DNA of 41,646 nt. Origin: a bacterium. Its GTDB lineage: Bacteria > Patescibacteriota > Minisyncoccia > Minisyncoccales > UBA10102. Made by a program: the position numbers and the translations under genes. This document shows, one piece after another, positions 7,502 to 40,630 of this stretch (the stretch's first letter is position 1; every line of letters starts with the position of its first letter). The notes under the pieces were generated by a model. The model ran no database searches, was not told the DNA's origin, and saw nothing but the letters and a program-made list of their open reading frames with translations. The DNA lies in assembly GCA_030698465.1 (NCBI GenBank), contig JAUYJZ010000014.1, positions 1 to 41,646 of the forward strand. Direction: 5' to 3'.

Positions 7502-7565
7502 GGTTCCTCCCGACCCCACTCTTTTAGAACCTTGCGGTTCTAATATTTCCACCACGGGAAGAACC
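7502..7565 (+). repeat. long-range inverted-repeat bracket F (GGTTCCTCCCG ... CGGGAAGAACC, one mismatch) enclosing hairpin AGAACC-TTGC-GGTTCT
   Basis: Shares CCCGACCCC (left) and CCACCACGGG (right) with bracket B at 14535-14658. Confidence 0.55.
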
Positions 7566-13477: not shown

Positions 13478-14535
13478 AAAAGCTGCTGCGAAAACTCATG
13501 TCATATCTGGGCCAGGATATTGCCATTGATTTAGGTACGGCAAACTCTTTGGTGTACGTGCGGGGGAAAGGGATTGTTATCCAGGAACCCTCTGTTGTGG
13601 CTGTGAATCAAAAGACCGGGCAGATTCTAGCCATTGGAGCTGAAGCCAAAAACATGGTGGGAAGGACTCCATCTCATATTGTGGCAACCCGCCCTCTAGT
13701 AAAGGGAGTGATATCGGACTTTGAGGTGACAGAACAGATGCTTCGGTATTTCATCAACAAGGTGGCGCGGAGAAAGTTCCTATTTTCTCTGGGACCGAGA
13801 GTTATCGTGGGCATTCCTTTTGGGGTAACAGAGGTGGAAAAGAAAGCGGTCCGAGATGCCACCCTCAATGCCGGAGCTCGAGAAGTCTACCTTATCGATG
13901 AACCCATGGCAGCTGCCATTGGTTCCAGGCTTTTGGTGCAGGAAGCTGGAGGAAATTTTATTGTGGATATTGGAGGCGGGACCGCCGAGGTAGCCATTAT
14001 ATCTTTGGGGGGTATTGTAACTGCAAAGTCCCTGCGGGTTGCGGGAGATAAATTGAATGAAGATATCATTCAATTTGCGCAAGATGAATACAAACTCTTA
14101 ATTGGCGAGCGAACTGCAGAGGGCCTAAAGCTTGGCATTGGCTCTGCCCATCCTTTAAAAGAGAAAAAAGAGATGCCTTTGCGTGGCCGCAATCTGGTGT
14201 CTGGACTCCCTGAGGAAATCCTGGTGTCAGATACTGAAATTCGGAGAGCCATGGAGCGTTCCGTGCGGCAAATCGTGGGAGAAATCAAGGCTGCCGTGGA
14301 GCAGACGCCTCCTGAACTGTTGGCAGATATCATGGAAAAGGGCATTTATCTTTCGGGCGGAGGAGCTTTATTGCGGGGTCTTGATCTCCTTATCTCAAAG
14401 GAAACCAAGATACCCACGGCTATCGTAGAAGATCCTTTAACGGCCGTGGTGAGGGGAGCTGGTATGGTTTTAGAGAATCTTGATGAACTACAGGATGTAT
14501 TGGTAGAAACAGAAGATTTAGAACCACCGCGATGA
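13474..14535 (+). CDS. mreB: rod-shape/actin-like protein MreB (paralog 2)
   Basis: IAIDLGTANSLVYV, DIGGGTAEVAIISLGG, LSGGGALLRG. ATGA overlap with proS. Confidence 0.92.
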   Translation: MKKLLRKLMSYLGQDIAIDLGTANSLVYVRGKGIVIQEPSVVAVNQKTGQILAIGAEAKNMVGRTPSHIVATRPLVKGVISDFEVTEQMLRYFINKVARRKFLFSLGPRVIVGIPFGVTEVEKKAVRDATLNAGAREVYLIDEPMAAAIGSRLLVQEAGGNFIVDIGGGTAEVAIISLGGIVTAKSLRVAGDKLNEDIIQFAQDEYKLLIGERTAEGLKLGIGSAHPLKEKKEMPLRGRNLVSGLPEEILVSDTEIRRAMERSVRQIVGEIKAAVEQTPPELLADIMEKGIYLSGGGALLRGLDLLISKETKIPTAIVEDPLTAVVRGAGMVLENLDELQDVLVETEDLEPPR

Positions 14536-14658
14536 ATTTTACCCCGACCCCCAATTTTAAGTAATGTGCCGGTGCGATTTTAACGCTCGGCAGGGACGCC
14601 TCGCTAAATCGCCCGTCAAAGTACAGCAGTTTACTTTGACCCACCACGGGGTAAAATT
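14535..14658 (+). repeat. long-range inverted-repeat bracket B (AATTTTACCCCG ... CGGGGTAAAATT, 12 bp perfect) enclosing two internal stems
   Basis: Internal stems are GCGATTT/AAATCGC and GTCAAAGTA/TACTTTGAC. The left arm starts at the mreB stop and the right arm ends 11 nt before the gatC ATG. Confidence 0.7.
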
Positions 14659-14966: not shown

Positions 14967-16375
14967 CCATTGCAGAACTTAGTATTGAAAAGGCGCAGGA
15001 AGGGCTTCTTTCAAAGGAGTTTTCTGCATTGGAATTTCTTGAGGAGGCCCTGAGAATTGTAGAAGAAAAAGAACCAAATCTTCACGCCTTTTTGACTCTT
15101 ACTCCAGAGCTTGCAAAGGAAGCAGCAAAAGTCACAGACGAGAAAATCGCAAAGGGCCAAAAGCTCCTAGCGCTTTCTGGCATTCCTTGCTCTGTGAAGG
15201 ACGCAATCTTGGTTCAAGGGGTGCGATGCACTGCGGCCTCCCGCATGCTGGAAAACTACATTGCCCCCTATGATGCTTTTGTGACTAAAAAAATAAAAGA
15301 GGCAGGAGTCAGCATCATGGGGAAAACTAACATGGATGAGTTCGGCATGGGAGCTTCCACAGAAAACTCCTCGTTTGGACCAACCACAAATCCTGTGGAT
15401 CCAAAGCGCGTCCCAGGAGGTAGCTCCGGGGGATCGGCAGTTTCAGTGGCAAGTTCTGAATCCATGATTTCTTTGGGTGAGGACACGGGTGGGTCTATTA
15501 GGCAGCCCGCATCCTTTTGCGGTATTGTGGGGTTAAAGCCAACCTATGGAGCGGTTTCAAGAGCCGGCATCATTTCCTTGGCATCTTCTTTGGATCAGGT
15601 GGGCTCCTTGGCAAAGAGTGCAAGGGATGCTGAAATTCTATTTCAGGTTATTCAAGGAAAAGACCCTAAAGATGCCACAAGTATTTCACCTCCCACGACG
15701 AGAAAAAAGATGAATATGAAAGAACTTCGGATTGGAATCCCCAAAGAATATTTTGCAAAAGGCTTGGACACAGATGTAAAAAAGGTTGTGGAAGGTGCCA
15801 TCCAGAAGTTTGAACAGGCAGGAGCCTCCCTTGTAGAGGTTGAACTGCCCAGTGTTGAGTATGCCCTAGCTGCCTACTATGTCATTAATACCTCTGAAGC
15901 TTCATCAAATCTGGCCCGATATGATGGTGTTCGTTACGGTTTACACCAAGAAGCCTCGAATTTATTGGGAGAGTACTTAGATTCTCGCGGGGCTGGGTTT
16001 GGTAAAGAGGTAAAGCGCAGAATTATGCTGGGCACCTATGCTCTTTCCGCAGGATACTATGACGCCTACTATGTGAAAGCCCAGAAGGTACGTTCACTGT
16101 TAAAGCAGGATTTTGAACGAGCCTTTTTAAAGGCAGACGTTCTCATGGGTCCCACGTCTCCGGTCCTGCCTTTTCGGTTTGGCGAGCGAACAAAAGATCC
16201 CTTGGCCATGTATTTGATTGATATCTATACTGTTCCGGTAAACTTGGTGGGACTTCCAGCAATCTCTCTGCCAGCGGGAACCGTGGGGAATCTCCCTGTG
16301 GGATTACAGGTTATTTCTCCCGCGTTTTCGGAGGACCTGTTATTTTCTGTGGGCAAAATGTTAGAGAAGCTGTAG
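14957..16375 (+). CDS. gatA: Asp/Glu-tRNA amidotransferase subunit A
   Basis: Amidase signature GGSSGGSAVSVA...GEDTGGSIRQPASFCG. Confidence 0.95.
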   Translation: MEMTIAELSIEKAQEGLLSKEFSALEFLEEALRIVEEKEPNLHAFLTLTPELAKEAAKVTDEKIAKGQKLLALSGIPCSVKDAILVQGVRCTAASRMLENYIAPYDAFVTKKIKEAGVSIMGKTNMDEFGMGASTENSSFGPTTNPVDPKRVPGGSSGGSAVSVASSESMISLGEDTGGSIRQPASFCGIVGLKPTYGAVSRAGIISLASSLDQVGSLAKSARDAEILFQVIQGKDPKDATSISPPTTRKKMNMKELRIGIPKEYFAKGLDTDVKKVVEGAIQKFEQAGASLVEVELPSVEYALAAYYVINTSEASSNLARYDGVRYGLHQEASNLLGEYLDSRGAGFGKEVKRRIMLGTYALSAGYYDAYYVKAQKVRSLLKQDFERAFLKADVLMGPTSPVLPFRFGERTKDPLAMYLIDIYTVPVNLVGLPAISLPAGTVGNLPVGLQVISPAFSEDLLFSVGKMLEKL

Positions 16376-16473
16376 ACCCCGCACTATTTTAATCATTCTT
16401 ATTTCGTATATTCTTTATTTATCGCAGTTCTTTGTTTCTCTTCAATACATTGCAAACGAGAATAGTGCGGGGT
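16376..16473 (+). repeat. long-range inverted-repeat bracket C (ACCCCGCACTATT ... AATAGTGCGGGGT, 13 bp perfect, 72-nt AT-rich loop)
   Basis: The left arm begins on the nucleotide after the gatA stop. It shares ACCCCGCAC with bracket D and with the mini-element at 37220. Confidence 0.7.
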
Positions 16474-16478
16474 AGACT
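16450..16478 (+). promoter_or_regulatory. promoter-like TTGCAA-17 nt-TAGACT, 8 nt upstream of ATG 16487
   Basis: Read directly. It overlaps the right arm of bracket C. Confidence 0.35.
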
Positions 16479-16486
16479 GAAAAAAG

Positions 16487-17005
16487 ATGGACATCTTATT
16501 TCAAACACTTTCTGCAATCAATAACCCTGGGCTTCAGCAAGCCTTAACGCCCTACCGCTGGATTTTGGGTATCGTGGGCGCTCTTTTATTGCTATTTTCT
16601 TTATATATACTGGCGCGTACAATGTGGCTGAAGTTTTCTTTGCTATTTGACCTTACCGAGTTTTTTACCTTTCGTCCGTATGGTCTACGGCGCATGACCG
16701 GAAAGTGGCAGAAGATTCAGCAACGCTTGGGAACCGCAAATGAGGCAGAGTACAAGCTTGCTATTATTGAAGCGGACGGTTTGCTTAATGATATTTTGCT
16801 GCGTATGGGATTTCGCGGCGAAACCCTGGGAGATAGGCTAAAGACGCTTACACCTGCTATTATTCCTAATCTCAACGATGTATGGCAGGCGCATCAGACC
16901 CGGAACAACGTGGTCCATGACCCTGATTACCGCCTACCCTTGGGGGAGGCACAAAAGACACTCGCAATCTACGAGCAGGCCTTTGGCAATCTCGATTTGA
17001 TTTAG
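16487..17005 (+). CDS. hypothetical membrane-anchored protein
   Basis: 172 aa. It has one TM segment (WILGIVGALLLLFSLYILA) and a helical C-terminal domain. Confidence 0.5.
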   Translation: MDILFQTLSAINNPGLQQALTPYRWILGIVGALLLLFSLYILARTMWLKFSLLFDLTEFFTFRPYGLRRMTGKWQKIQQRLGTANEAEYKLAIIEADGLLNDILLRMGFRGETLGDRLKTLTPAIIPNLNDVWQAHQTRNNVVHDPDYRLPLGEAQKTLAIYEQAFGNLDLI

Positions 17006-17784
17006 GTATTACGTATAAGTCCTTCGATCCAGCCGTGTATCTTTCTTCGTAGCGAGGTTCCTTGTTTGACTGTAATGCGCAGAGTTCCCATATAGGTTTC
17101 GGGATGTGGGTAGATTTTGTTTGGCTTTGTCTTAATAATCGTAGTTTTTGTAAATTGGTGGAATGGAATTCTGGTAAGTTTAGACCAATAGCTTTCAATT
17201 TCCGGGATTCGCTTTTGATGCAATTTATTTACTTTTATATGGAGTGTAATCCGCTCTTTAGAAATCTTGCAAATTTCTTTAAACCATTTCAATATCAGAA
17301 GGATAAGTTTTGGATCTGAGTTTGTGAACCCAACTTGTTCGCCCCCAGGATAGGTGTATCCTTCGCTCCAGTACATCCCCACACCAAGGATAAAAAGATC
17401 CCGCTCGGTCAAAACGCCAATTTCCTTTATTGATTTCTTGCGAAGGAAAGCAGTCTCTATTATTCGCGAACCGGCTCGTTTGGCCTTGGCGCGCTTACTA
17501 CCTTTGATCTCTCCGGAAATTTCTCGTTTCTTCAATCGCGTTCTTTGTGCGGGTGTAAGTTTTATATCCTTTGACCACATACTGAGCGATCCACCTTTTT
17601 CTATTTTAAGTCGTTTAGCAATCTGACTAAAACTAAAACCAGCTCGGCGTAATCGCTGGACACGAGTTTTTTGAAGAGAGGCCAATTTTTGCATACTTGT
17701 TGCGGGAGCCGGAATTGCACCGGCGTCGCAAGGTTCTTTCTCTACCTTTTGTTTCCAAAAGGAATGGACTATCCCATTTCCCAT
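17002..17784 (-). CDS. HTH + LAGLIDADG-type homing-endonuclease-family protein (free-standing)
   Basis: N-terminal HTH (RRAGFSFSQIAKRL) and a single LAGLIDADG-like motif (LFILGVGMYWSEGYT). An alternative start is the ATG at 17694. Confidence 0.65.
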   Translation of the reverse strand: MGNGIVHSFWKQKVEKEPCDAGAIPAPATSMQKLASLQKTRVQRLRRAGFSFSQIAKRLKIEKGGSLSMWSKDIKLTPAQRTRLKKREISGEIKGSKRAKAKRAGSRIIETAFLRKKSIKEIGVLTERDLFILGVGMYWSEGYTYPGGEQVGFTNSDPKLILLILKWFKEICKISKERITLHIKVNKLHQKRIPEIESYWSKLTRIPFHQFTKTTIIKTKPNKIYPHPETYMGTLRITVKQGTSLRRKIHGWIEGLIRNT

Positions 17785-18040
17785 TCGGGAATCCCCATTA
17801 TAGTCTCTGAACCTTCTCGCCTGAGGCGAACTTGGCTGCTGATTGCCAAATCCCTCCTTATTTTTAACCGTTCACGCTCATTCTTGCGAATCACGTTGTA
17901 GGAAGAAGGGCTCTTATGGTTTTCCAGCAATTTCGGGGATTTTCATCAAGATGTTTCCATCTTGCGCCACACGTTTGTATGGGCCTCGCATGGTACTACT
18001 CCACTATCCCGCATACCTAGTATATCCAAAAAAGAAGCGC

Positions 18041-18080: not shown

Positions 18081-18152
18081 GGCTGCGTAGCTCAGTGGCA
18101 GAGCAAAGGACTCATAAGCCTTAGGTCAGTGGTTCGAATCCACTCGCAGCCA
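18081..18152 (+). tRNA. tRNA-Met (anticodon CAT; elongator-like, could be tRNA-Ile2 if lysidinylated)
   Basis: Hand-folded cloverleaf: acceptor GGCTGCG/CGCAGCC, D-stem GCTC/GAGC, anticodon loop CTCATAA, T-arm AGTGG-TTCGAAT-CCACT. CCA is not encoded. Confidence 0.85.
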
Positions 18153-18168
18153 CAAGGACTGAATATAT

Positions 18169-18244
18169 GCGGGCGTAGCTTAGCCTGGTTTAAAGCGCTT
18201 CCCTGTCACGGAAGAGATCGCCGGTCCAAATCCGGTCGCCCGCG
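18169..18244 (+). tRNA. tRNA-Asp (anticodon GTC)
   Basis: Acceptor GCGGGCG/CGCCCGC, anticodon stem-loop CTTCC-CTGTCAC-GGAAG, T-arm GCCGG-TCCAAAT-CCGGT, discriminator G. Confidence 0.88.
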
Positions 18245-18308
18245 CAATTTATTGCAATAAATTGCGCGAGGCTCGCCTCAAAGAGGCGGCCCGCGCCTAT
18301 TGCTATAT

Positions 18309-18554
18309 ATGAATTCTTATACTATTTACATATTAACGAGTATAAAAATTCCAAAAACATACGTTGGTTATACATCTAATCTTGCAAGGCGTTTGCGCGA
18401 GCATAATGCTGGACGCGTCAAAGCTACAAAACATTTTTGTCCATGGAATCTATTGCATAAAGAGATTGTTACTTGCTTAAGTAAAGCAAAAAAGCGAGAG
18501 CAATATTGGAAAAGTGCGGCTGGAAGAAAAAAACTCAAACTCTTTTTTGGGTAG
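18309..18554 (+). CDS. small GIY-YIG (URI-domain) nuclease-family protein
   Basis: YTIYIL...TYVGYTSNLARRLREHN...KKREQYWK pattern. The ATG is at 18309, inside the tracked ORF 18300. Confidence 0.8.
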   Translation: MNSYTIYILTSIKIPKTYVGYTSNLARRLREHNAGRVKATKHFCPWNLLHKEIVTCLSKAKKREQYWKSAAGRKKLKLFFG

Positions 18555-26428: not shown

Positions 26429-26932
26429 ATGACTACATTTATCATCGCAGCCATAACCGCAGACGGCTTTATCGGAAAGAATTCAAGTCATCTGGCTGAC
26501 TGGACCAGCAAGGAGGACAAGCGTTTTTTTGTGGAAATGACCAAAAAAGCGGGGGTTGTTATCATGGGCCAGAATACCTTTGAAACCATTGGAAAACCCC
26601 TTCCTGGGCGCCTCAATATCGTGTATTCCAGGGACAAACAGCACGAAGGGGTGGAAACCACGCAAAAGCCTGCACAAGAGCTTCTGGATGACCTCAGGGG
26701 TCGTGGATACCAGGAAGTTGCCATTGGTGGGGGTGCCACTATCTACACCATGTTTTTAGAGCAAAAACTGGTAGACAAGCTCTATTTGAGCATTGAACCA
26801 GTTTTATTCGGGAAAGGCATCACCCTGTTTAACAAAGAATTTGATACGAAGCTTGAATTGGTATCGGTAAAGAAACTCGGTGAGCAAACCGTATTACTAG
26901 AATATAACGTACTAAAAACTTACTCTCAGTAA
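26429..26932 (+). CDS. dihydrofolate-reductase-family protein (RibD C-terminal-like)
   Basis: FIIAAITADGFIGK...VIMGQNTFETIG...AIGGGATIY. Divergent from thyA. The ATG is at 26429, inside the tracked ORF 26324. Confidence 0.78.
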   Translation: MTTFIIAAITADGFIGKNSSHLADWTSKEDKRFFVEMTKKAGVVIMGQNTFETIGKPLPGRLNIVYSRDKQHEGVETTQKPAQELLDDLRGRGYQEVAIGGGATIYTMFLEQKLVDKLYLSIEPVLFGKGITLFNKEFDTKLELVSVKKLGEQTVLLEYNVLKTYSQ

Positions 26933-26969
26933 GTTATCCACACCTTACCGAGAGTAAGGATGAATATAT

Positions 26970-29511: not shown

Positions 29512-30381
29512 CCGAACTAAGTTTTCAGCTTCTCTTTGGTTCTTTACCCAGTGAATGCGTGGGTCTTTTTTAAACCAGGTCATTTGGCGACGGGCAAAAT
29601 CTTGAGTTGCTTTTAATGTCTTTTCAATCATTTCTTGCCTTGTAATCTTTTTTTGAAGATATTGGGAAACTTCTCGATATTCGAAACCAAAACTCTCAAT
29701 TCTTTTCCAGGACAATCCCTGCTTTCGGAGTTCCTTAATCTCGTTAAGGAAACCGTGCTTGAGCATTAGTAAAAAACGCTTTCTAATTTTCTGTTGAAGT
29801 ACTTGTGGCGATTTTTTGATGCCAATGAATAGTGATGGGTAGGGGAGTGAATCTTTTTGCAAGCTCGGCACGGGCTTTCCCGTAATCAGTATAATCTCTA
29901 AGGCGCGAATGAGACGTCTTTTGTTTTTTTGTTCTATAGTTCTTGCCCGATGCGGATCGAGCTCTTTGAGTTTTTTGTAGAGTTCATTAATACTCAATTT
30001 CCCCAACTCTTTTCTAAGTTTCGTTTGTGGCCTCACTTCAGGCATAATCCAGCCATCCACCACGGCATAAACATACAAAGGACTGCCACCTACAAGAAAG
30101 GGGAGTCTGCCTCTTTTATGAATTCCCAGGATTGCTTTTCGCGCTTCTTTTTGATACCGAGCTACCGTATATCTCTTTTTTGGAGAAGCAACGCTCAAAA
30201 GATGGTGCGGTATTCTTCGCATCTCTTTTCTTGTCACCTTTCCAGTTCCAATATCCAGGCCCCTGTATACTTGTCTAGAATCAGCAGAAACAATCTCACC
30301 AGAGAACCTCTTTGCGAGTTTTATAGCTAACTCACTTTTCCCCGATGCCGTAGGGCCTAAAATTACGATTAATTTTTTCAT
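29488..30381 (-). CDS. miaA: tRNA dimethylallyltransferase
   Basis: GPTASGKS P-loop, SADSRQVYRGLDIGT. The 3' end overlaps gatB by 24 nt (convergent). Confidence 0.93.
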   Translation of the reverse strand: MKKLIVILGPTASGKSELAIKLAKRFSGEIVSADSRQVYRGLDIGTGKVTRKEMRRIPHHLLSVASPKKRYTVARYQKEARKAILGIHKRGRLPFLVGGSPLYVYAVVDGWIMPEVRPQTKLRKELGKLSINELYKKLKELDPHRARTIEQKNKRRLIRALEIILITGKPVPSLQKDSLPYPSLFIGIKKSPQVLQQKIRKRFLLMLKHGFLNEIKELRKQGLSWKRIESFGFEYREVSQYLQKKITRQEMIEKTLKATQDFARRQMTWFKKDPRIHWVKNQREAENLVRLSFQKAL

Positions 30382-30440
30382 AGATATAGCGAGATGCCAC
30401 TATACCAAAATAGCTCATATAAACAATGAAGGTCAAACGA

Positions 30441-30572
30441 GGTATGCCGCTCTCCGGGAAGCTTTCGGAGGCGGTTTGGCATGGTTCCCGCGAAAGCGGG
30501 ACAAACCGCCGAGAACGCAAGCCCCAAAATCTCGCTGGGATTTTGAGGGCTGATTCCCGAGAGTGGCATACC
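30441..30572. ncRNA. candidate 132-nt structured RNA / bracket element (three-way junction); strand uncertain
   Basis: P1 is GGTATGCCGCTCTCCGGGAA/TTCCCGAGAGTGGCATACC (19 bp, one G-T, one bulge). P2 is GGCGGTTTG...CAAACCGCC with TCCCGC-GAAA-GCGGGA. P3 is AGCCCCAAAATC...GATTTTGAGGGCT. Confidence 0.45.
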
Positions 30573-30577
30573 GAGTG

Positions 30578-32164
30578 CTAATGGACTTCCTCGCGCTTCT
30601 CACGGAGGAACGATCTCCACTGTTCCAGGAATTCAATGAACACCTGAAAAGGAATCTCAATTAAGAAGTTGAAAATAACAATGAGGATATTATACTTTGC
30701 AACCTGCCGCGAGAGCCATCTTCCTGTGTGGATAATGGGCAAAGAGAATAGGTCGAATATGGTATAGAGGAATCCCTGCTTTTCTTTCCCGATCAAGAGC
30801 TCTCTTCCCCGCTGCCTAATTTTTGTCCCGCCAAACGCTACCAAAGAGACAAAGAAGAGAAAAATAATGATGGAAAGCAGGCTGAAATCCAGTTTCCAGA
30901 GCCCCCAGGAAATCAAACCGAATGAAAAGAGAAAACTCAAGAGGTATAGGATGGAAATAAAGCCTTCAAGCAGGGGGCGCTTGCGCCGCGGCACTGGTAT
31001 CTCTAGCCGGTCCTCCCCCCTTTTTCCATATACTATCTTCATGACCTCCATCATGAGGCGCTGAAAGTTCTCTTCTGTTGTGGTTTTCGTACTCAAGACA
31101 AGCAGCAGCATGAGTAGAGGAGGGATTGTAACACTTAGGAAAAGAACTGTCTGGCTAAAATCCCCAGTCACATACTTATCTAGGGGAATTTCAATAGCAA
31201 AGGCAACCAATACCTTAGTGAGGAGAACGGAAATAGTACTGTAAAAGGCAGCCCTGCGCATTTTACCTCCGAGTTTTTGCAGGCGGGAGGCATAGTTCTC
31301 TTGCACTGCATTTTCCATGGCAGCAGGATCTGAGCTGAACTGTTCAAAATCCGTTGGATGAGCGCTAAGGATATCTCCGATAATCAAATACGAAGAATCA
31401 TACTTTTCCATAAGCTGGTAAAAGCGTTCACCAAAGGAGTGATGAATGACAACATACAGTTCGTTCTTTATCTTTGGAAGCTGCGAAGCCAATTGTTGAA
31501 GGGTTACAGATGCAGGTTCCCTCCAGTCCTGGTACTTTTGCTCCAGCAGATGATGGATGATGGTGGCCTCATCAAGCTTGAATAACGCTCGCTGTACGGC
31601 AACGGAGATTTGGAGATTCCTTTCTCCCTCTTCCATGTCGCCTCCATTCTGAAGCTGCACCCTTTCTTTCATGTCGTCTATCATGAATTGGATAAGGGCA
31701 CGCTCTCTAATGGGAGGGGCTAGAGTTTCTTCAATTTCAGAAGCCGCAACGCCAAGCAACCACATTCGCAATTCTGCCAGCATCTTTTCTGCTCCATCCT
31801 GGGGACTGTGCTCCAGCAAATAGAAGTATTTTTCAACGATTCTCTGGATTTCAGTTATCTTTGTGATTGGGATGCGCTCATTGGGGAAGTGACCACCTCG
31901 GACGAGTTCCTGCACAAAGGGTTCGGCGAAATCTTCTTTTGTCCCCAAAAGCATCCTGCGTTTCAAGATACGCTCAATAGCAGTCTTTCTGAGCAAATGC
32001 TCTTCCCGCCAATCCACAACACCCCGTATTTTCTCGTAGAAGGAGGCAACTTTGGCAGCAACCTCATCCACAGTAATTGTGGGGACCCCTTCTATGGGCT
32101 GCAGACTCTCATACCATCTCTTGTATTCCGCAGACAGCTTTTTTACATCAAGTGGCAGTTCCAT
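30578..32164 (-). CDS. conserved-looking multi-pass membrane protein of unknown function
   Basis: 528 aa. A roughly 300-aa soluble helical N-terminal region is followed by about 6 hydrophobic segments. Confidence 0.6.
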   Translation of the reverse strand: MELPLDVKKLSAEYKRWYESLQPIEGVPTITVDEVAAKVASFYEKIRGVVDWREEHLLRKTAIERILKRRMLLGTKEDFAEPFVQELVRGGHFPNERIPITKITEIQRIVEKYFYLLEHSPQDGAEKMLAELRMWLLGVAASEIEETLAPPIRERALIQFMIDDMKERVQLQNGGDMEEGERNLQISVAVQRALFKLDEATIIHHLLEQKYQDWREPASVTLQQLASQLPKIKNELYVVIHHSFGERFYQLMEKYDSSYLIIGDILSAHPTDFEQFSSDPAAMENAVQENYASRLQKLGGKMRRAAFYSTISVLLTKVLVAFAIEIPLDKYVTGDFSQTVLFLSVTIPPLLMLLLVLSTKTTTEENFQRLMMEVMKIVYGKRGEDRLEIPVPRRKRPLLEGFISILYLLSFLFSFGLISWGLWKLDFSLLSIIIFLFFVSLVAFGGTKIRQRGRELLIGKEKQGFLYTIFDLFSLPIIHTGRWLSRQVAKYNILIVIFNFLIEIPFQVFIEFLEQWRSFLREKREEVH

Positions 32165-32168
32165 ATAA

Positions 32169-33938
32169 TTATGCTCCCTCCTCCAATTCTTTCTTCACGA
32201 GACTTGCAAACTCAGCCACACTCATTAACCCCAAATCTCCTTTGCCCCGTTTTCTCGGAGCTACCGCAGCTTTTGCCATTTCCTTTTCTCCCACAACCAA
32301 AAGATAAGGGATTTTCTGGGTTTCACCTTCTCGAATCTTTTTTCCCAACGTCTCATTCTCGTCTCGAATGACAATGCGCAGGGAAGGGGAGAGAAGACGC
32401 AGTTGTTCTACAACCTTCTTTGCATAGTCTGTGAATTTGTCTGAAACAGGAAGAATCCATGCCTGTTCTGGGGAAAGCCATAAAGGGAAGGCGCCTCCGA
32501 AATGCTCAATCAAGATACCAAGAAATCGCTCTGTGGAACCCAAAATGGCACGATGCAGCACAACGGGGCGCAGTTTTTTTCCTTTTTGGTCCACGTATTC
32601 AAGGGAAAATCGCTCCGGCAGATTCATATCCAGCTGCACAGTAGAAAGCTGCCATTCCCTATTCAAAACATCCTTGAAGATGAAATCGAGTTTGGGGCCG
32701 TAAAAGGCGGCTTCTCCAACGCCTGCTTTCTGCTTCCACCCGCGCTTTTTCACAAGCCGCGAGAGTATTTTTTCAGACTCCCTCCATATTTTTTCAGATC
32801 CAATGTATTTTGTTTTTGCTTTGGGATCCCGGGTGGAAATCCTGACCCAGAAATCCTTGAATCCAAATTTAAGATATGCGGCCTCAATCATATCAAACAT
32901 GAGGTTCAGCTCTTCTTCAATTTGATCTGGGCGCAAGAAAACATGGCAATCGTCCTGTGTCAAAGAACGAACTCGAGTAAGGCCAGAGAGCTCTCCTGAT
33001 TTCTCATAGCGATAATTGGTGGTTGTCGCGGTCCAGCGCAAGGGAAGTTCACGCCAGGAATGAGGAATGCCTTTATAGAGCATCATGAAATGGGGGCAAT
33101 TCATGGGTTTCAAATAATAGTCTGCCTCCCCCTTGAGCTTCATGGCAGGATACATGGCATCAAACTTATCTAAGTGACCAGATATGCGATACAACTCGCC
33201 CTTGGTGATATGCGGAATCCAAATGGGATGATACCCATTTTCCTCTTGAAGAGTTGTGATGTATTGCTCCACAATGCGGCGCAATAAGGCACCCTTGGGA
33301 TAGAACATGGGGAGTCCGGGCCCCACTTCATCTGCAATAGAAAAAAGTCCGAGTTCTTTTCCGAGTTTTCGGTGGTCGCGCTTTTTCGCCTCTTCCTGCT
33401 GCCAAAGATACTGCTCCAGCTCCTTTGTGGTCTGAAAAGCAGCTCCGTACACCCTTTTGAGCATTGGATTCTTTTCATCCCCTCGCCAGTAGGCTCCCGC
33501 CACATGGGTAAGCTTGAAAGCATCCAGGGGAAGTTCCCTGGTGTTTTTAATATGTCCTCCGCGGCATAGGTCCAAAAACACATCTCCGGTCCAGACCATG
33601 CCAACTTTTCCTACTTTCTTTTCCCGGGAAAGATCTTTGATAAGCTCAACCTTAAAGGGTTGCTTCTTTTTTTTAAAGTATGCTGCAGCTTTCAATACAG
33701 GCCAGAGTTCTTTTTTGAATGCGAGGTTTCTCATGGCAATTCCGCGCATTTCTTTTTCTAGTTTTGGCAGGTCTTTCTCTGAAATATCAATGTTTTTAAA
33801 ATCGTAATAGAAACCATTCTCGATAACCGGCCCAATCCCAAACTGCGCTTTTGGATAAAGCTTTTGTACTGCTGAGGCCAGCAGATGTGCAAAGGAGTGC
33901 CGTATATTGTCTAAAGATTCTTGCTTCACCCCGCACAA
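32169..33938 (-). CDS. thrS: threonine--tRNA ligase (no N-terminal TGS domain)
   Basis: RHSFAHLL editing-domain motif near the N-terminus, AGAYWRGDEKNPMLKRVYG, class II core. The start is uncertain (TTG 33938 or GTG 33929). Confidence 0.92.
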   Translation of the reverse strand: MCGVKQESLDNIRHSFAHLLASAVQKLYPKAQFGIGPVIENGFYYDFKNIDISEKDLPKLEKEMRGIAMRNLAFKKELWPVLKAAAYFKKKKQPFKVELIKDLSREKKVGKVGMVWTGDVFLDLCRGGHIKNTRELPLDAFKLTHVAGAYWRGDEKNPMLKRVYGAAFQTTKELEQYLWQQEEAKKRDHRKLGKELGLFSIADEVGPGLPMFYPKGALLRRIVEQYITTLQEENGYHPIWIPHITKGELYRISGHLDKFDAMYPAMKLKGEADYYLKPMNCPHFMMLYKGIPHSWRELPLRWTATTTNYRYEKSGELSGLTRVRSLTQDDCHVFLRPDQIEEELNLMFDMIEAAYLKFGFKDFWVRISTRDPKAKTKYIGSEKIWRESEKILSRLVKKRGWKQKAGVGEAAFYGPKLDFIFKDVLNREWQLSTVQLDMNLPERFSLEYVDQKGKKLRPVVLHRAILGSTERFLGILIEHFGGAFPLWLSPEQAWILPVSDKFTDYAKKVVEQLRLLSPSLRIVIRDENETLGKKIREGETQKIPYLLVVGEKEMAKAAVAPRKRGKGDLGLMSVAEFASLVKKELEEGA

Positions 33939-34007
33939 AATTAAATTTATTATCGCCTTAACTTTCCCGTAAAAATTGCTATTGTTTTGCGCAATTTTGT
34001 GCGGGGT
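33928..34007. repeat. long-range inverted-repeat bracket D (ACCCCGCACAAAATT ... AATTTTGTGCGGGGT, 15 bp perfect, 50-nt loop)
   Basis: One arm abuts the dnaE stop (34008-34010). The other arm contains the candidate thrS start codons. Confidence 0.7.
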
Positions 34008-37000
34008 TCACGTTACCTCTTGAAACTCTTCAACTTCTTCTGCGACAAATTTCTTTATGCCTTGGTACTGATTTACCCTCCCCGCAACCAAGACAATCTT
34101 ATTCTCTTGAAATAGAGTGGGGTATTTTTCAATGACTGAAGGGAATACTACCACCTCTATCTTTGCGGTCAAATCCTCAAGGCCCAAAAAAAGCATGGGT
34201 TTTCCACTCTTGGTGATGATACGCTTGATAGAAGAGATAATGCCTCCAATACGGATTCGAGAGAAGGGCGCTCCTGCAGTTTGCCGCACTGGCTCCTGGT
34301 TCATGATTTTTGCAATAGAAAATGCTTTTTTCTCCAAAAGATTCTTTAAACTATCCAATGGATGAGAACTCACATAGAGACCTAAAAGCTCTTTTTCCCA
34401 CAAAAGTTTCTGGTTCTCATTTGTAGCTTCAGCGTCCTGTAAAGGGAGTTGTGGAGTAGATTGCTCCGCTTTTGCAAACAGAGATTGCTGGGCACCGTTT
34501 TGCACCTTAAAACTCTCTCGGGCAGCCTGCAAAAGGCGTTCCAAATTAAAGAGCAGCTTGTTTCGGTCAGCAAACACATCGAAAACTCCGGTTTTGATAA
34601 GACACTCCAGCGATTTTTTGTTTAGATTGGTGGAGCTAATACGGGAAATAAAGTCTTGCATGCTGTGATACGGGCCGGTTTTCTTTCGTTCTGTAATGAT
34701 GGCTTCCACAATACCTTCTCCCACATTTTTTATCGCTAAGAGTCCAAAGCGAATTTGATTTTTTTGAGGCACCACAGAAAAGTTGCTGAAACTCTCATTA
34801 ATATCCGGAGACAGAACCTCAATTCCCATCTTTTTTGCCTCTTCAATCAAAAAAGCAATGCGTTCTATATCGTTTCGTTCTGCGGTCAGAAGGGCGGACA
34901 TGAACTCCACAGGATAATGGGTCTTAAGCCAGGCGGTTTGATAGGCAATGGTAGCATATGCTGCAGAATGTGATTTATTGAACCCATATCTGGCAAAGGG
35001 TAAAACCCACTCCCAAATTTTATCGGCAATCCCTTTTTGAATTCCGTTATCAATCATACCTTTTACAAACTTCTCCTTTTGTTCCATTAAGAGTTCCATA
35101 ATCTTTTTCCCCACGGCTTTTCGAAGCACATCTGCTTGAGCTAAGGAAAACCCGGCCAGATCTTGCGCAATCTTCATGACCTGTTCTTGGTAAATGCAGA
35201 TTCCTTGGGTATTTTCCAGGATGGGCTTTAATTTTTCGTGAAGGTAAGAAATCTTCTTTCTCTTATGCTTTCTAGCAATGTATTCGGGAATAAGCTCCAT
35301 AGGACCTGGGCGATACAAGGCAATCATGGCAATGATATCTTCAAACTCCGTGGGCTTTAATTCTCTAAGATATCTTCGCATACCTTCTGACTCAACCTGA
35401 AATATTCCAATTGTGTTTGCATCCTGAAAGAGTTTATAGACCGCAGGGTCGTCTTGTGGGATTTGGTCAATGTCAACGTTTTTTCCATAAATGACATAGA
35501 TACGCTTTAGGGTATCCTCTATAACAGAAAGGTTTTTCAAGCCCAGAAAATCCATCTTCAAGAGCCCCAGGTCTTCAATGCTGTGCATTTCATACTGAGT
35601 CACGATGTTTTCATCGTTTTGCGTAGGATGCTGCAGGGGCACCATAGAGTTTAATGATTGGGCTGCAATCACCACCCCGCAAGCGTGCGTGGAAGCGTGC
35701 CTCGCCACTCCTTCCAGTTTTTGAGCAAGATCAATCAAGCGCTTCGCCTTTTCATCCGTGTCGTACAACTCTTTAAATTCTGCAACCTGCTCTAGGGTCT
35801 GCTGCAACGTATGGCTAAAGGGAATCATCTTTGCCACCCGGTCGCAATAGCTATATTCGTACCCTAGGGCGCGTCCCACATCTCGGATGACGGCTCTGGC
35901 AGCCATGGTTCCAAAGGTGATAATTTGGGCAACTCGGTCGTGACCATATTTTTCTGCAACATACTGAATAACCTCATCCCTCCGATAGTCGGCAAAATCC
36001 AAATCAATATCAGGAAGAGAAACCCTTTCTGGATTGAGGAATCGTTCAAAGAGCAGGTTGTACTGCAAAGGATTAATATTCGTGATTTTCAAAAGGTAAG
36101 CAACCAGAGATCCGCCCACCGAACCTCTTCCGGGTCCCACCACAATACGCTTTCCCTTTGCCCAGTTCACAAAATCTTGCACAATAAGAAAGTAAGGAGC
36201 AAACCCGGTTTGGCGAATCACACCCAACTCAAATTCTAGACGCTTTGCGGCTTCTGGGTTTTTTTGTAACTCAGGTCTCGCCTTGAGCCCTTCCAAACAG
36301 AGTTCTCGCAAATACTCATCTGCTTTCTTCCCATCTGGGAGGGGAAAGACCGGGAGACGGGTTACCCCGAGCTCCAGTTCAAAGTTACACGCTTTTGCAA
36401 TGAGTCCTGTATTTGTGACGCTTTCTGGAGCGTCCGAGAAAAGTTCTTCCATATCACGCTGACTCTTCAATGAAAAATCATCTGCGGTTAAAGTTAGGCG
36501 TTCTGGATCGTCAGGACGGGCACCGGTATTGATAAGCATTAAGATGTCTTGAGCTTCTGCATCCTCTGGTCGCAGATAATGGGAATCAGCAGTAGCCACC
36601 ACGGGAATACTCAATTTCTTTGAAAGCTCAAGTAGGCCTTGGTTCACGATTTTTTGCTCAGGGATATTGGGATGCTTTTGGAGTTCTAGATAGAAATTCT
36701 CTTTCCCGAAAATTTCCTGGTATCGCAAGGCCACTTCCTCTGCTTCCTGTTTCTTTTTTGCTCGAAGGAGTCTCGGGATTTTTCCATTCAAGCATCCTGA
36801 TAAAGCAATGAGACCTTCGGCATGCTCTTTCAAGAATGCTTCGTCCACCCGGGGTTTATAATAGAAGCCCTTGAGGTGCCCTGCAGTGAGAATCTTCACA
36901 AGATTTTTATATCCTTCCTGGTTTTTCACCAGAACAACCATATGATAAATAGTATCATCAATCTTAGGCCGCTTTTGATCCATTGATTCAAAAGCAAGGT

Positions 37001-37219: not shown

Positions 37220-37271
37220 CACGCCTGCCCCGTACCGAACCGAGGGTTCTGGTGCGGGGTGGAGATGCGTG
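37220..37271. repeat. miniature variant of the structured repeat (CCCCGTACCGAACC-GAG-GGTTCTGGTGCGGGG inside CACGC/GCGTG)
   Basis: Shares the 11-mer AACCGAGGGTT with copies 1 and 3. Its right arm is the complement of ACCCCGCAC found in brackets C and D. Confidence 0.6.
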
Positions 37272-37273
37272 AA

Positions 37274-37562
37274 CCCCCCACCACTTTTACGTGAGTTCAA
37301 TGGAGTTGCTAATTCGTTTTTTGAGCTCTGCATAGGAATTTTTGAATTGCTTCAATTTTGATTCTCTCGTGCGCGCGTCTTTCTCTGATTGATAAGCTTC
37401 ATAGTAGACCAACACAAGAGGAGTTCGATATTTTGTAGATTTGTTGAGACTTTGATTATGCTCGTTAAGACGTTTTCGGAGGTCATTGGTTGATCCTATA
37501 TACAACCTACCATCTTTCTTACTTTTCAATACATAAACATAAAACATGAAAGTGGTGGGGGG
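37274..37562. repeat. 14-bp perfect inverted repeats (CCCCCCACCACTTT / AAAGTGGTGGGGGG) exactly bracketing the GIY-YIG ORF
   Basis: Left arm 37274-37287 touches the stop codon. Right arm 37549-37562 starts 2 nt beyond the ATG. Confidence 0.8.
37287..37547 (-). CDS. small GIY-YIG (URI-domain) nuclease-family protein
   Basis: FYVYVLKSKKDGRLYIGSTNDLRKRLNEHN...ARTRESKLK is the classic GIY-YIG pattern. Confidence 0.88.
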   Translation of the reverse strand: MFYVYVLKSKKDGRLYIGSTNDLRKRLNEHNQSLNKSTKYRTPLVLVYYEAYQSEKDARTRESKLKQFKNSYAELKKRISNSIELT

Positions 37563-37598
37563 TGAATTTTCCCATGAAAGCGTAAAATTTGTAGGACA

Positions 37599-37681
37599 AA
37601 TTTTCAGTTTCCCCCGTGTCGGAAAAATCTTAAAAACCGAAGGTTTGTAAAAGAAGGGGGGTCGGGGGAGACTGTGTGACC
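37599..37681 (+). repeat. structured ~80-nt repeat, copy 2 (most diverged)
   Basis: CAGTTTCCCCCG...CGGGGGAGACTG (U-G wobble on + strand) with inner TTAAAAACC-GAA-GGTTTGTAA. Confidence 0.8.
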
Positions 37682-37740: not shown

Positions 37741-37823
37741 AGATTTTGGGTTTCCCCCGTGTCGGAAATTATTCAAAACCGAGGGTTTTGAAAAGAAGGG
37801 GGGTCGGGGGAAACCCTGTGATC
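37741..37823 (+). repeat. structured ~80-nt repeat, copy 3
   Basis: GGGTTTCCCCCG...CGGGGGAAACCC (compensated outer stem). The inner hairpin is identical to copy 1. It overlaps the rnhB start region. Confidence 0.85.
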
Positions 37824-39208: not shown

Positions 39209-39316
39209 GAAACGAAATGAACCCCGTACTGAAAATTAGACCGTGCTGTTTCTCGCCAAAACACATCATTTAATCCATTATGAAGTCATCAAACCAAACA
39301 CCAACAATGGTCGCAT

Positions 39317-40054
39317 ATGTCGCACGTCAAGAGAAGTCTAATTTCTAGTACCGGGATGAACGACATTGAAGAGTTTGAAAAAGAAACCGACATTGTTTTT
39401 AAAAACAAAGACCTCTTAAAGCAAGCATTCACCCATCGCTCTTATTTAAACGAGAATCCGGGCTTTGATCTCCAGCATAACGAGCGCATGGAATTTTTAG
39501 GAGACGCGGTATTAGAACTTGTGGTGACCGAGTACCTCTACGAGCAGCATCCCGACAAACCAGAAGGGGAACTGACCACCTGGAGAGCCGCCCTGGTAAA
39601 CGCCAGAATGCTGGCGATTGTGGCAAAAGATTTGCAGCTTGGAGATTATTTACTCTTGTCGAAAGGTGAAACAAGGGAAACTGGTAAGGCAAGAGACTAC
39701 ATCTTAGCTAACGCTACAGAAGCCCTTATCGGAGCTCTCTACCTTGACCAAGGGTTAAAAATATGTCACAAGGTTATTGAGCGATACATCCTAAGCAAAC
39801 TGCCAGAGATTTTAAAGGAGAAACTCTTTGAAGATGCCAAGTCCCGTTTCCAGGAGCTTGCCCAAGAAAAGACCGGTATTACTCCAAACTACCAGGTATT
39901 GGCAGAATGGGGTCCAGATCACGAAAAACACTTTAGGATGGCAGTCCTTGTGGGGAAAGACGTGATGGCAGAAGGAGAAGGAACTTCAAAACAAGAGGCA
40001 GAACAGGATGCGGCAAGAGCTGCATTAGAAAAACATGAAAAAAATTGGGGTTGA
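39317..40054 (+). CDS. rnc: ribonuclease III
   Basis: NERMEFLGDAVLELVV signature plus a C-terminal dsRBD. An alternative start is the ATG at 39356. Confidence 0.92.
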   Translation: MSHVKRSLISSTGMNDIEEFEKETDIVFKNKDLLKQAFTHRSYLNENPGFDLQHNERMEFLGDAVLELVVTEYLYEQHPDKPEGELTTWRAALVNARMLAIVAKDLQLGDYLLLSKGETRETGKARDYILANATEALIGALYLDQGLKICHKVIERYILSKLPEILKEKLFEDAKSRFQELAQEKTGITPNYQVLAEWGPDHEKHFRMAVLVGKDVMAEGEGTSKQEAEQDAARAALEKHEKNWG

Positions 40055-40075
40055 AGCAAACTGCTTTGCTTCAAC
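40050..40075 (+). other. hairpin containing the rnc stop codon (11-bp stem GTTGAAGCAAA/TTTGCTTCAAC, loop CTGC)
   Basis: Read directly. It has the same loop and flanking AA-CTGC-TT context as the rpmJ hairpin. Confidence 0.5.
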
Positions 40076-40153: not shown

Positions 40154-40597
40154 ATGCTAACCATACGACTACAACGAAAAGGAAAAAAGAACCAGCCATT
40201 CTTTAAGATAATAGTGACAGAAGAGAAAAGATCCTCCACAGGAGGCCGCTTTGTAGAAGAGTTGGGATTCTACAACCCTCTCACCAAGGAAAGATCTCTG
40301 AAAGGGGATAGGGCAAAATACTGGATGTCTGTTGGAGCAAAACCCTCAGATACCGTATACAACATGCTGGTAACAGAGAGTATAATTGAAGGAAAGAAAC
40401 GCCCCCAGCACAAGAAATCCAAGAAAAAGCAGCTCATCGAGCCTGAACGGCCTGAGGCAGAAGCTGCTCCTCAGCCAAAGGCTGATCAGCCTCCGGCTGA
40501 AGCTCCTGTAGCTGAAACTCCACCTCCCATAGCTCTTAACGAACCAAAGAAAGAGACTACCGAGGGTATTGACCCTTCACCTCTCCAAGGGAGGTGA
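40154..40597 (+). CDS. rpsP: 30S ribosomal protein S16 (Pro/Ala/Glu-rich C-terminal extension)
   Basis: MLTIRLQRKGKKNQPFFKIIV... The ATG is preceded by TATAAT (40140-40145) at 8 nt. Confidence 0.95.
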   Translation: MLTIRLQRKGKKNQPFFKIIVTEEKRSSTGGRFVEELGFYNPLTKERSLKGDRAKYWMSVGAKPSDTVYNMLVTESIIEGKKRPQHKKSKKKQLIEPERPEAEAAPQPKADQPPAEAPVAETPPPIALNEPKKETTEGIDPSPLQGR

Positions 40598-40601
40598 AGG
40601 G
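40573..40601 (+). other. hairpin containing the rpsP stop codon (CCCTTCACCTC-7 nt-GAGGTGAAGGG), no U-tract
   Basis: Read directly: 11 bp perfect. Confidence 0.5.
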
Positions 40602-40630
40602 TTGACAAATCCTAAGTTCTATGCTATACT
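40602..40630 (+). promoter_or_regulatory. consensus-like promoter TTGACA-17 nt-TATACT
   Basis: Read directly. It lies 18 nt upstream of ATG 40649. Confidence 0.6.

Follow-up and report, generated by a model that had tools for sequence, protein, structure and literature searches.

The DNA analysed here is a contig of 41,646 nt (the window, contig C66) from a 517-kb genome of the Patescibacteria or Candidate Phyla Radiation (CPR; 74 contigs, estimated 92% complete, 46% G+C). Several of its intergenic spacers carry long-range inverted repeats, which an earlier note had described as one class of hairpins bracketing the spacers from stop to start codon. The elements with ACCCCGC ends are DNA insertions with target duplications, and the interpretation of the hairpins as DNA elements is strongly supported. 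Together with about 30 others in the genome, those at 16376-16473, 33928-34007, 1545-1644, 39221-39357 and 37227-37260 very probably belong to one family of mobile DNA elements that are small and palindromic. The earlier list of members in the window was incomplete, as 37273-37563, 39221-39357 and 37227-37260 also belong to it. In the following, C-numbers denote contigs of the present genome and G-numbers genomes of relatives; ORF stands for open reading frame. The members in the window are:

1545-1644, no strand assigned: ORF-less element of 100 nt between infA and rpmJ, arms ACCCCGCCCTCTATGC...
16376-16473, no strand assigned: ORF-less element of 98 nt, arms ACCCCGCACTATT / AATAGTGCGGGGT
33928-34007, minus strand: family A copy of 80 nt, GTGA|ACCCCGCACAAAAT...ATTTTGTGCGGGGT|GAAG, the dnaE stop being followed by the element and then by thrS (minus-strand reading)
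37227-37260, no strand assigned: short imperfect hairpin, GCCCCGTACC...GGTGCGGGGT, between the GIY-YIG element and the dnaE start (read from the sequence)
37273-37563, minus strand: gene-bearing element of 291 nt with perfect 15-nt ends ACCCCCCACCACTTT / AAAGTGGTGGGGGGT, upstream of dnaE
39221-39357, plus strand: family T copy of 137 nt, ATGA|ACCCCGTACTGAAAATTAGAC...GTCTAATTTCTAGTACCGGGAT|GAACGAC, whose rebuilt ATG starts the downstream ORF

The flanks of the elements were projected onto G004, a congener with a complete genome of 671 kb whose flanking genes share about 72% DNA identity with those of the present genome. Clean empty sites were found in G004 for 16 elements, namely ten ORF-less ones (including a 29-nt hairpin), five of the six of family T and the gene-bearing 37273-37563. 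The gatA spacer is empty in two congeners, with GTAA|ACTGAAAGAACATGG in G004 and GTAG|AATGAAGAAACATGG in G001, and reads GTAG[98 nt + AG]ACTGAAAAAAGATGG in the present genome, AG being duplicated at 16374-16375 and 16474-16475. Around 37273-37563, GA is duplicated on both sides and the empty site in G004 is GGAGATGCGTGAATTTTTCCATGG; that of 39221-39357 is aagaATGAAcgacattt. For C5:3502, C27, C43, C68 and C71, the counterpart in G004 is a plain ATGA stop/start overlap. The site of C58:5762 is CTAG in G004, where two convergent genes have their stops in common; the present genome carries a duplicated TA, and TAA is rebuilt on both strands by the terminal A and T of the element. The infA-rpmJ spacer measures about 7 nt in G004 compared to 144 nt in the present genome. 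At the sixth family T site, C72:11673-11809, G004 has an 80-nt element with an unrelated interior (arms CCCCTGTTAGAAGTT) on the same ATGA, and the two are independent insertions of two subfamilies at one start-codon site.

A direct repeat of 2-3 nt flanks 21 of 23 elements, with about 1.4 expected by chance. Two GIY-YIG elements of 305 nt in G039 are 100% identical end to end and lie at unrelated loci, one of them between rplN and rplX, each with a GA duplication; their identity begins and stops at the inverted ends. This identical pair comes as near to an observed move as genome sequences alone can show. The suggestion of the earlier note that the repeats could be footprints of a DNA-level element is backed by the target duplications and by the empty sites in relatives. 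The comparison of orthologous spacers for conserved pairing, which it had proposed, found none in the relatives because these lack the whole element, which is the outcome that the note had named as refuting its reading.

The reconstructed target is T|NN|A, for example GCGTGAATTTT, with NN duplicated. Most insertions were found on a TGA|A that belongs either to a stop/start overlap (ATGA) or to a start codon, and [A/G]TGA|A is occupied by family A (10/10), family T (5/6), C27, 37273 and the G039 copies. At the left junction, the stop codon is retained (T-NN, or TA+A), the first base of the element being A. At the right junction, the terminal [A/G]T and the duplicated G restore the start codon at its exact former position ([A/G]TG-A). 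Because the ends rebuild both codons at the T|NN|A target, the hairpin seems to span the whole spacer between stop and start, and this placement needs no dedicated host signal. With a coding share of about 90% (crude estimate), it is at gene boundaries that insertions will survive, and T|NN|A within the short spacers there (0-15 nt) would usually be a stop codon followed by A. At 33928-34007, the terminal GT together with the flanking G provides the only start codon where ThrS of the relatives begins, and the N-terminus of ThrS, when aligned with the relatives, starts at this rebuilt GTG; the dnaE-thrS spacer of a congener is 58 nt shorter and has an ordinary ATG start.

Elements were also found inside coding sequence. 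Type IV pilin genes carry in-frame elements of 85+2 or 64+2 nt at Phe-Thr codons (T|TT|A or T|TC|A), and the element end GGTGCGGGGT encodes Gly-Ala-Gly there, by which the canonical cleavage site G|FTLIE is rebuilt. The pilin orthologue of G004 has the plain leader MSQKQKG|FTLIE, while the leader is longer by 22-29 residues with the insertions (C16:3976-4060, L032, L033, L035 and L039). At C22:8668, a gene-bearing element adjoins the FTLIE codons of another pilin gene.

All six inverted repeats of the earlier note were recovered, with the following arms:

1545-1567 / 1622-1644: 13 nt perfect, 23 nt at 87%
7502-7565: 5+5 bp flanking one mismatch
14535-14546 / 14647-14658: perfect arms of 12 nt
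16376-16388 / 16461-16473: perfect arms of 13 nt
30441-30457 / 30556-30572: 17 nt at 88%
33928-33942 / 33993-34007: perfect arms of 15 nt

Every one of them is far more stable as an RNA fold than its shuffles (z -3.9 to -10). They do not form a single class as had been supposed, for the ACCCCGC terminus is present in only three of the six (1545-1644, 16376-16473 and 33928-34007). The statement that an arm lies at the upstream stop codon was exact for gatA (TAG ends at 16375, the arm begins at 16376), dnaE (the arm ends at 34007, TGA is 34008-34010) and mreB (TGA overlaps position 14535) and nearly so for the arm at 30572, which is 5 nt from a stop. It failed for 1545, which starts 19 nt past the infA stop, and for 7502, where the nearest upstream stop is about 98 nt away. 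By direct reading, no T-run follows any arm, as the note had observed, so that the U-tract which accompanies the GC-rich hairpin of an intrinsic terminator is absent throughout. An Rfam search of the whole window at gathering thresholds found nothing but two tRNAs and a group I intron and matched no hairpin, and a search of 30380-30640 with E up to 1 gave nothing beyond a chance miRNA match.

The genome scan that the note had proposed (perfect arms of at least 12 nt, loops of 40-130 nt) returned 31 repeats, whereas 20 dinucleotide-preserving shuffles averaged 3.3 and reached 6 at most, and ACCCCGC occurs ten times in the window with 3.0 expected. About three to six of the 31 repeats would arise by chance. 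Given the excess over the shuffles and the termini common to about 35 copies in alignable families, chance inverted repeats in AT-rich spacers have a negligible probability as an explanation for the whole set.

These about 35 elements in the 517-kb genome share the termini A[C/T]CCCGC of 1545-1644, 16376-16473 and 33928-34007. A search for the shared terminus (ends A[C/T]CC.[G/C]C[A/C]C, at most two mismatches over the first 13 nt of the arms) returned 23 elements, to which the six copies of family T (136-139 nt, including 39221-39357) are additional. Their arms are perfect over 13-16 nt and begin with A[C/T]CC.G. Family A comprises ten copies of 80-81 nt, including 33928-34007. It is restricted to the lineage, with one copy in G003 and none in G001, G002, G004 and 400 genomes of the class. 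Short hairpins of 29-37 nt with the arms ACCCCGCACATAA occur at least seven times in the genome. Singles or pairs, among them 16376-16473 with its sibling C17:1539-1635 and 1545-1644 with its relative C8:5521, and two long elements (291 and 311 nt) make up the remainder. The gene-less copies measure 29-139 nt and have no ORF conserved among copies.

The element at 16376-16473 lies directly 3' of the gatA TAG, with the next ATG (16487) 13 nt on, and folds as RNA with -26.3 kcal/mol (z -5.95). At 1545-1644, the hairpin spans nearly the full length (-51.8 kcal/mol, z -10), and its arms match those of a GIY-YIG-bearing element in G004. Some contigs terminate in these elements, which bears on the assembly.

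Full-length members measure 250-320 bp, hold a single gene for a GIY-YIG nuclease of 76-95 aa inside ends of the same type and follow the same insertion rule. In the window, 37273-37563 encloses only one ORF, 37287-37547 on the minus strand, for an 86-aa GIY-YIG nuclease (Pfam PF01541, E 4.3e-18, residues 1-71). Among solved structures, its nearest relatives belong to the UPF0213 proteins (1ywl and 1zg2, E about 5e-5), and NCBIfam gave sub-threshold matches only. The 311-nt member C16:897-1207 likewise has perfect ends of the same type and only a GIY-YIG ORF inside (PF01541, E 8e-15), the ORFs of the two long members being 86-95 aa in length. Its ends are common to the ACCCCGCACATAA hairpins and, when juxtaposed, equal such a hairpin. 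G004 holds a gene-bearing element of 253 nt and a gene-less one of 62 nt with identical 16-nt ends; in the former, ATG lies within the left arm and TAG within the right arm. Perfect repeats (12 nt or more, starting with (A)CCCC) bracket 13 of 31 small GIY-YIG loci sampled in the order and 12 of 28 across the phylum, a share of about 40%; by chance, we estimate about 0.001 per locus. The downstream host ORF was co-directional with the nuclease gene at 20 of 24 bracketed loci (crude ORF calling). A small GIY-YIG ORF at about 18310-18553 on the plus strand lies directly after tRNA-Asp and has no bracketing repeats; a perfect 28-nt palindrome at 18241-18268 overlaps the 3' end of this tRNA, and C68:6423-6656 is a similar tRNA-adjacent GIY-YIG copy.

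The ORF-less copies are probably non-autonomous derivatives of the gene-bearing form, similar to miniature inverted-repeat transposable elements (MITEs). As to what moves them, two other kinds of transposase gene were found and rejected:

C63:5916-6992: rve-type insertion sequence, the only conventional one seen, with a transposase of 346 aa and 10-nt ends TGATACACCC
C47:2526-3245, C4:13208-13897 and C32:622-1419: RAYT-like Y1 (HUH) ORFs of 229-265 aa

The former is present as a single copy and its ends are unrelated to those of the elements. The palindromes beside the three Y1 genes are their own and differ from the elements; the genes at C47 and C4 carry them, in C47 as AGAGCAGGGAC-N-GTCCCTGCTCT on both sides. 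The Y1 genes are a separate system of the REP/RAYT type in a 0.5-Mb genome. DDE_3 and DDE_Tnp_1 were absent from the present genome in a Pfam search that covered four transposase families only and leaves others possible; DDE_3 corresponds to IS630-like elements with 2-bp TA duplications.

GIY-YIG enzymes such as I-TevI and Eco29kI leave 2-nt 3' overhangs, which fits with a 2-bp target duplication. Since no conventional transposase of the families searched shares the ends, the overhangs fit and the Ssn nucleases described below offer a parallel, the GIY-YIG nuclease is our candidate for the mover. We put the chances at about even that it mobilises its own unit together with the gene-less derivatives. 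It would recognise the hairpin formed by both ends of the element and cut the target with a 2-nt stagger. In its fullest form, the proposal is more tentative and falls somewhat short of an even chance. An autonomous DNA transposon with a length of about 290 bp could have a single-domain GIY-YIG nuclease of about 86 aa as its sole protein; it would lie outside the recognised transposase classes and be smaller than any known autonomous element. The nuclease would recognise the hairpin of its own ends and cut T|NN|A with the 2-nt stagger that characterises GIY-YIG enzymes, and the ends may have evolved to rebuild stops, starts and the prepilin cleavage site, so that the unit and its gene-less derivatives could spread through essential operons in ultra-small genomes and leave these operons intact, with the conserved stem keeping downstream translation coupled.

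Alternatively, the hairpin itself could be the mobile or target unit, moved by something other than the nuclease, be it a RAYT-like Y1 transposase or some unknown process of the host. The GIY-YIG genes would then be free-standing homing-endonuclease genes lodged in the middle of a hairpin, whose half-sites appear as inverted ends. Homing-endonuclease genes do reside within their own recognition sites, the genome has three Y1_Tnp genes, hairpins of 29-31 nt with the same ends are inserted alone with a duplication (C58:5762), and the juxtaposed ends of C16:897-1207 equal such a hairpin. We nevertheless consider this explanation unlikely. The Y1 genes carry other palindromes, and transposition of the IS200/RAYT type leaves no target duplication. 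A search of G039 for Y1_Tnp gave no match, yet this genome has two identical gene-bearing copies with fresh GA duplications at unrelated sites. The empty site of 37273-37563 holds no hairpin, so this unit must have arrived as a whole.

A number of observations weigh against the proposal of a nuclease-driven mobile element. The length of the duplication is ambiguous, being either 2 or 4 nt, as the terminal A and T may belong to the target; C58:5762 favours one reading and L049 with L060 the other. No duplication was found at 1545 (CT/TC, not clean), C8:5521, L041, L061 and L067. The 86-aa protein is a single domain without an obvious DNA-binding part, and its proposed role in cleavage and transposition is deduced from sequence. 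Two of the six GIY-YIG copies in the present genome and about 55% of the sampled loci of relatives have no bracketing repeats. No gene-bearing partner with identical ends was found for families A and T in any genome searched, which for family A comprised 41 relatives and 400 genomes of the class; this absence also speaks for the hairpin as the moving unit. Finally, the arms of family A are 100% identical in 11 copies with interiors at 69%, the orthologous 62-nt element C8:5521-5582 and G004:C1:88282-88343 keeps perfect arms by a compensatory change from C-G to A-T, and all 16 copies of families A and T are oriented the same way with respect to their neighbouring genes. The C8:5521-5582 element aligns with its G004 orthologue better in the orientation opposite to the flanks and may have flipped in place.

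The invariant arms, the compensatory change and the fixed orientation suggest some constraint in place, by a function as RNA or single-stranded DNA, which pure selfish decay would not predict. Possibly, the machinery requires intact ends and the active lineages are long-lived, or template switching corrects the quasi-palindromes. A strand-specific mechanism on single-stranded DNA or host-level selection on the mRNA stem are further possibilities. By extruding the insert, such a stem would place the rebuilt start beside the upstream stop or ribosome-binding site again, an idea already put forward in the earlier note; this would make insertions into operons tolerable and could explain why the pairing is kept. 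A conserved inner helix is not claimed for family A, where three weak pairs were found with 73% paired.

The same features, together with the stable closing stems and the start codon at the stem base, would be expected if the hairpins were host-selected RNA structures that arose in place and served translational coupling, RNase III processing or 3'-end protection. As an account of their origin, this is already contradicted and very improbable, although such roles may exist as secondary consequences. The spacers of congeners lack the hairpins and have precisely abutting flanks where the 2-bp duplication is found here, and the same ends enclose a nuclease gene. Copies are located within pilin coding sequence, and the families appear in lineage-specific bursts (ten copies here compared to none or one in congeners) without a match to any Rfam family.

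The elements were compared with known systems. Bacterial MITEs such as the Correia elements of Neisseria, RUP and ERIC are short, non-coding sequences with terminal inverted repeats and target-site duplications, which occur in many intergenic copies within operons; their transcripts can form long hairpins, and those of Correia elements are substrates of RNase III. The present elements agree with MITEs in all structural respects, i.e. size, lack of coding sequence, terminal inverted repeats, duplications with empty sites and dispersed families. To our knowledge, known MITEs derive from insertion sequences encoding DDE transposases, whereas the only partner sharing ends here encodes a GIY-YIG nuclease and no recognised transposase. 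Further differences are the T|NN|A target and the ends that rebuild stop and start codons.

Rickettsia palindromic elements (RPEs) insert in frame into coding sequences, which resembles the insertions in pilin leaders; we know of no mover for them. Mycobacterial MIRUs are tandem direct repeats located at stop/start overlaps within operons and preserve the overlapping codons. The present elements share this position with MIRUs, which are however not palindromes, and neither RPEs nor MIRUs are linked to a gene-bearing form with the same ends. Integron attC sites, for which the GTTRRRY core is missing and the flanks hold housekeeping genes, and invertible phase-variation switches, considered for the pilin copies, were both ruled out by the empty sites and duplications of the same units elsewhere.

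According to a study on REP/REPIN-RAYT systems (PMC3337134), these similarly consist of palindromic intergenic repeats with one small gene flanked by its own repeats, and the single-stranded hairpin is the likely recognised form. They differ in the fold of the enzyme and in the lack of a target duplication, and the local RAYT-like genes carry other palindromes. The recently described Ssn proteins, small GIY-YIG nucleases with a single domain, bind single-stranded DNA at a hairpin repeat and cleave it next to this repeat (Chenal et al. 2025, PMC11893778). The authors remark that the layout of the genes, with hairpin repeats on either side, is like that of insertion sequences, and that there is an enrichment in symbionts with small genomes (PMC11893778). 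The present system resembles Ssn and its NTS (SRM) repeats in that a single-domain GIY-YIG protein of about 90 aa (86 aa here, compared to about 90-100 aa for Ssn) is encoded by a gene flanked by hairpin-forming inverted repeats, and in that many copies of the repeats lie scattered, for the most part outside genes. However, the Ssn gene lies between two complete hairpins, while the gene here is enclosed by both arms of a single long hairpin, neither arm of the gene-bearing elements being self-complementary. The Ssn study provides enzymology and no insertion polymorphism or target duplication, and the reverse is true for the present elements, which are known from sequence alone. The SRM motif HGTCWY..YYVSBRH..WNVSBRG..RNCYNB matched once in the genome, away from these elements, with 0-4 matches (mean about 1.6) in shuffles. 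A survey of the literature on GIY-YIG proteins with terminal inverted repeats, GIY-YIG proteins of Patescibacteria, MITEs of the CPR and UPF0213/COG2827 gave no description of these elements, the Ssn study being the nearest.

The other three repeats of the earlier note are different in kind. By BLAST, 7502-7565 and 14535-14658 belong to another repeat family (family P) together with 2783-2863, 37599-37679 and 37750-37823 of the window. Its copies of about 68-80 nt share the shell CCCCCG...CGGGGG, are numerous here and in G004 and vary in the outer stem with compensatory changes. The three loci are:

7502-7565, minus strand: family P copy of 64 nt, termini ..CCCG|TGGTGG...GGGGT|CGGG... (minus-strand reading), with near-identical copies on C48 and C53
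14535-14658, minus strand: shell of the family P type with a nested second repeated module, between the mreB TGA and the gatC ATG
30441-30572, no strand assigned: separate multi-helix structure of 132 nt between a gene of unknown family and miaA (-71.4 kcal/mol, z -6.9)

The interior of 14535-14658 matches C23, C37, C38, C70 and several sites in G004, one of which is a split family P copy (G004:536596-536750). The structure at 30441-30572 lacks ACCCCGC ends, has partial relatives at C8:1060-1148 and G004:17760-17813 and is unrelated to both families of hairpin repeats. The neighbouring genes mreB, gatC, gatA, dnaE, thrS, infA, rpmJ and miaA were checked with Pfam.

Further repeats include a family of 28-nt hairpins with a 12-bp stem and a 4-nt loop (consensus GCCAAAAGCAAA-N4-TTTGCTTTTGGC), found in the window at 1783-1810 and 40050-40075 and at 20 or more other sites of the genome, as well as hairpins of the types ACCCTTCACC... 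(40572-40602) and CTTACTCTCGGTAAG (26919-26958). The group I intron matches RF00028 in full length at 17745-17999 on the minus strand (72.6 bits); it overlaps the start of the ORF 17002-17784 (minus strand) and is located about 80 nt from tRNA-Met at 18081.

Genomes of CPR/Patescibacteria measure about 0.5-1 Mb, are about 90% coding and are usually held to leave little room for selfish DNA. The present genome has about 35 copies of one superfamily and a second hairpin family within operons for ribosomal proteins, replication and tRNA charging, and the elements persist because their ends restore the codons that they interrupt. For annotation, this means that start codons are often mis-called through the elements and pilin leaders appear lengthened by 22-29 residues. 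The elements also bear on the understanding of operon expression in these bacteria. If the small GIY-YIG nuclease is indeed the mover, they would represent a new, minimal kind of transposon, and a natural role would be given, beside that of the Ssn nucleases, to the very large and uncharacterised family of small GIY-YIG proteins.

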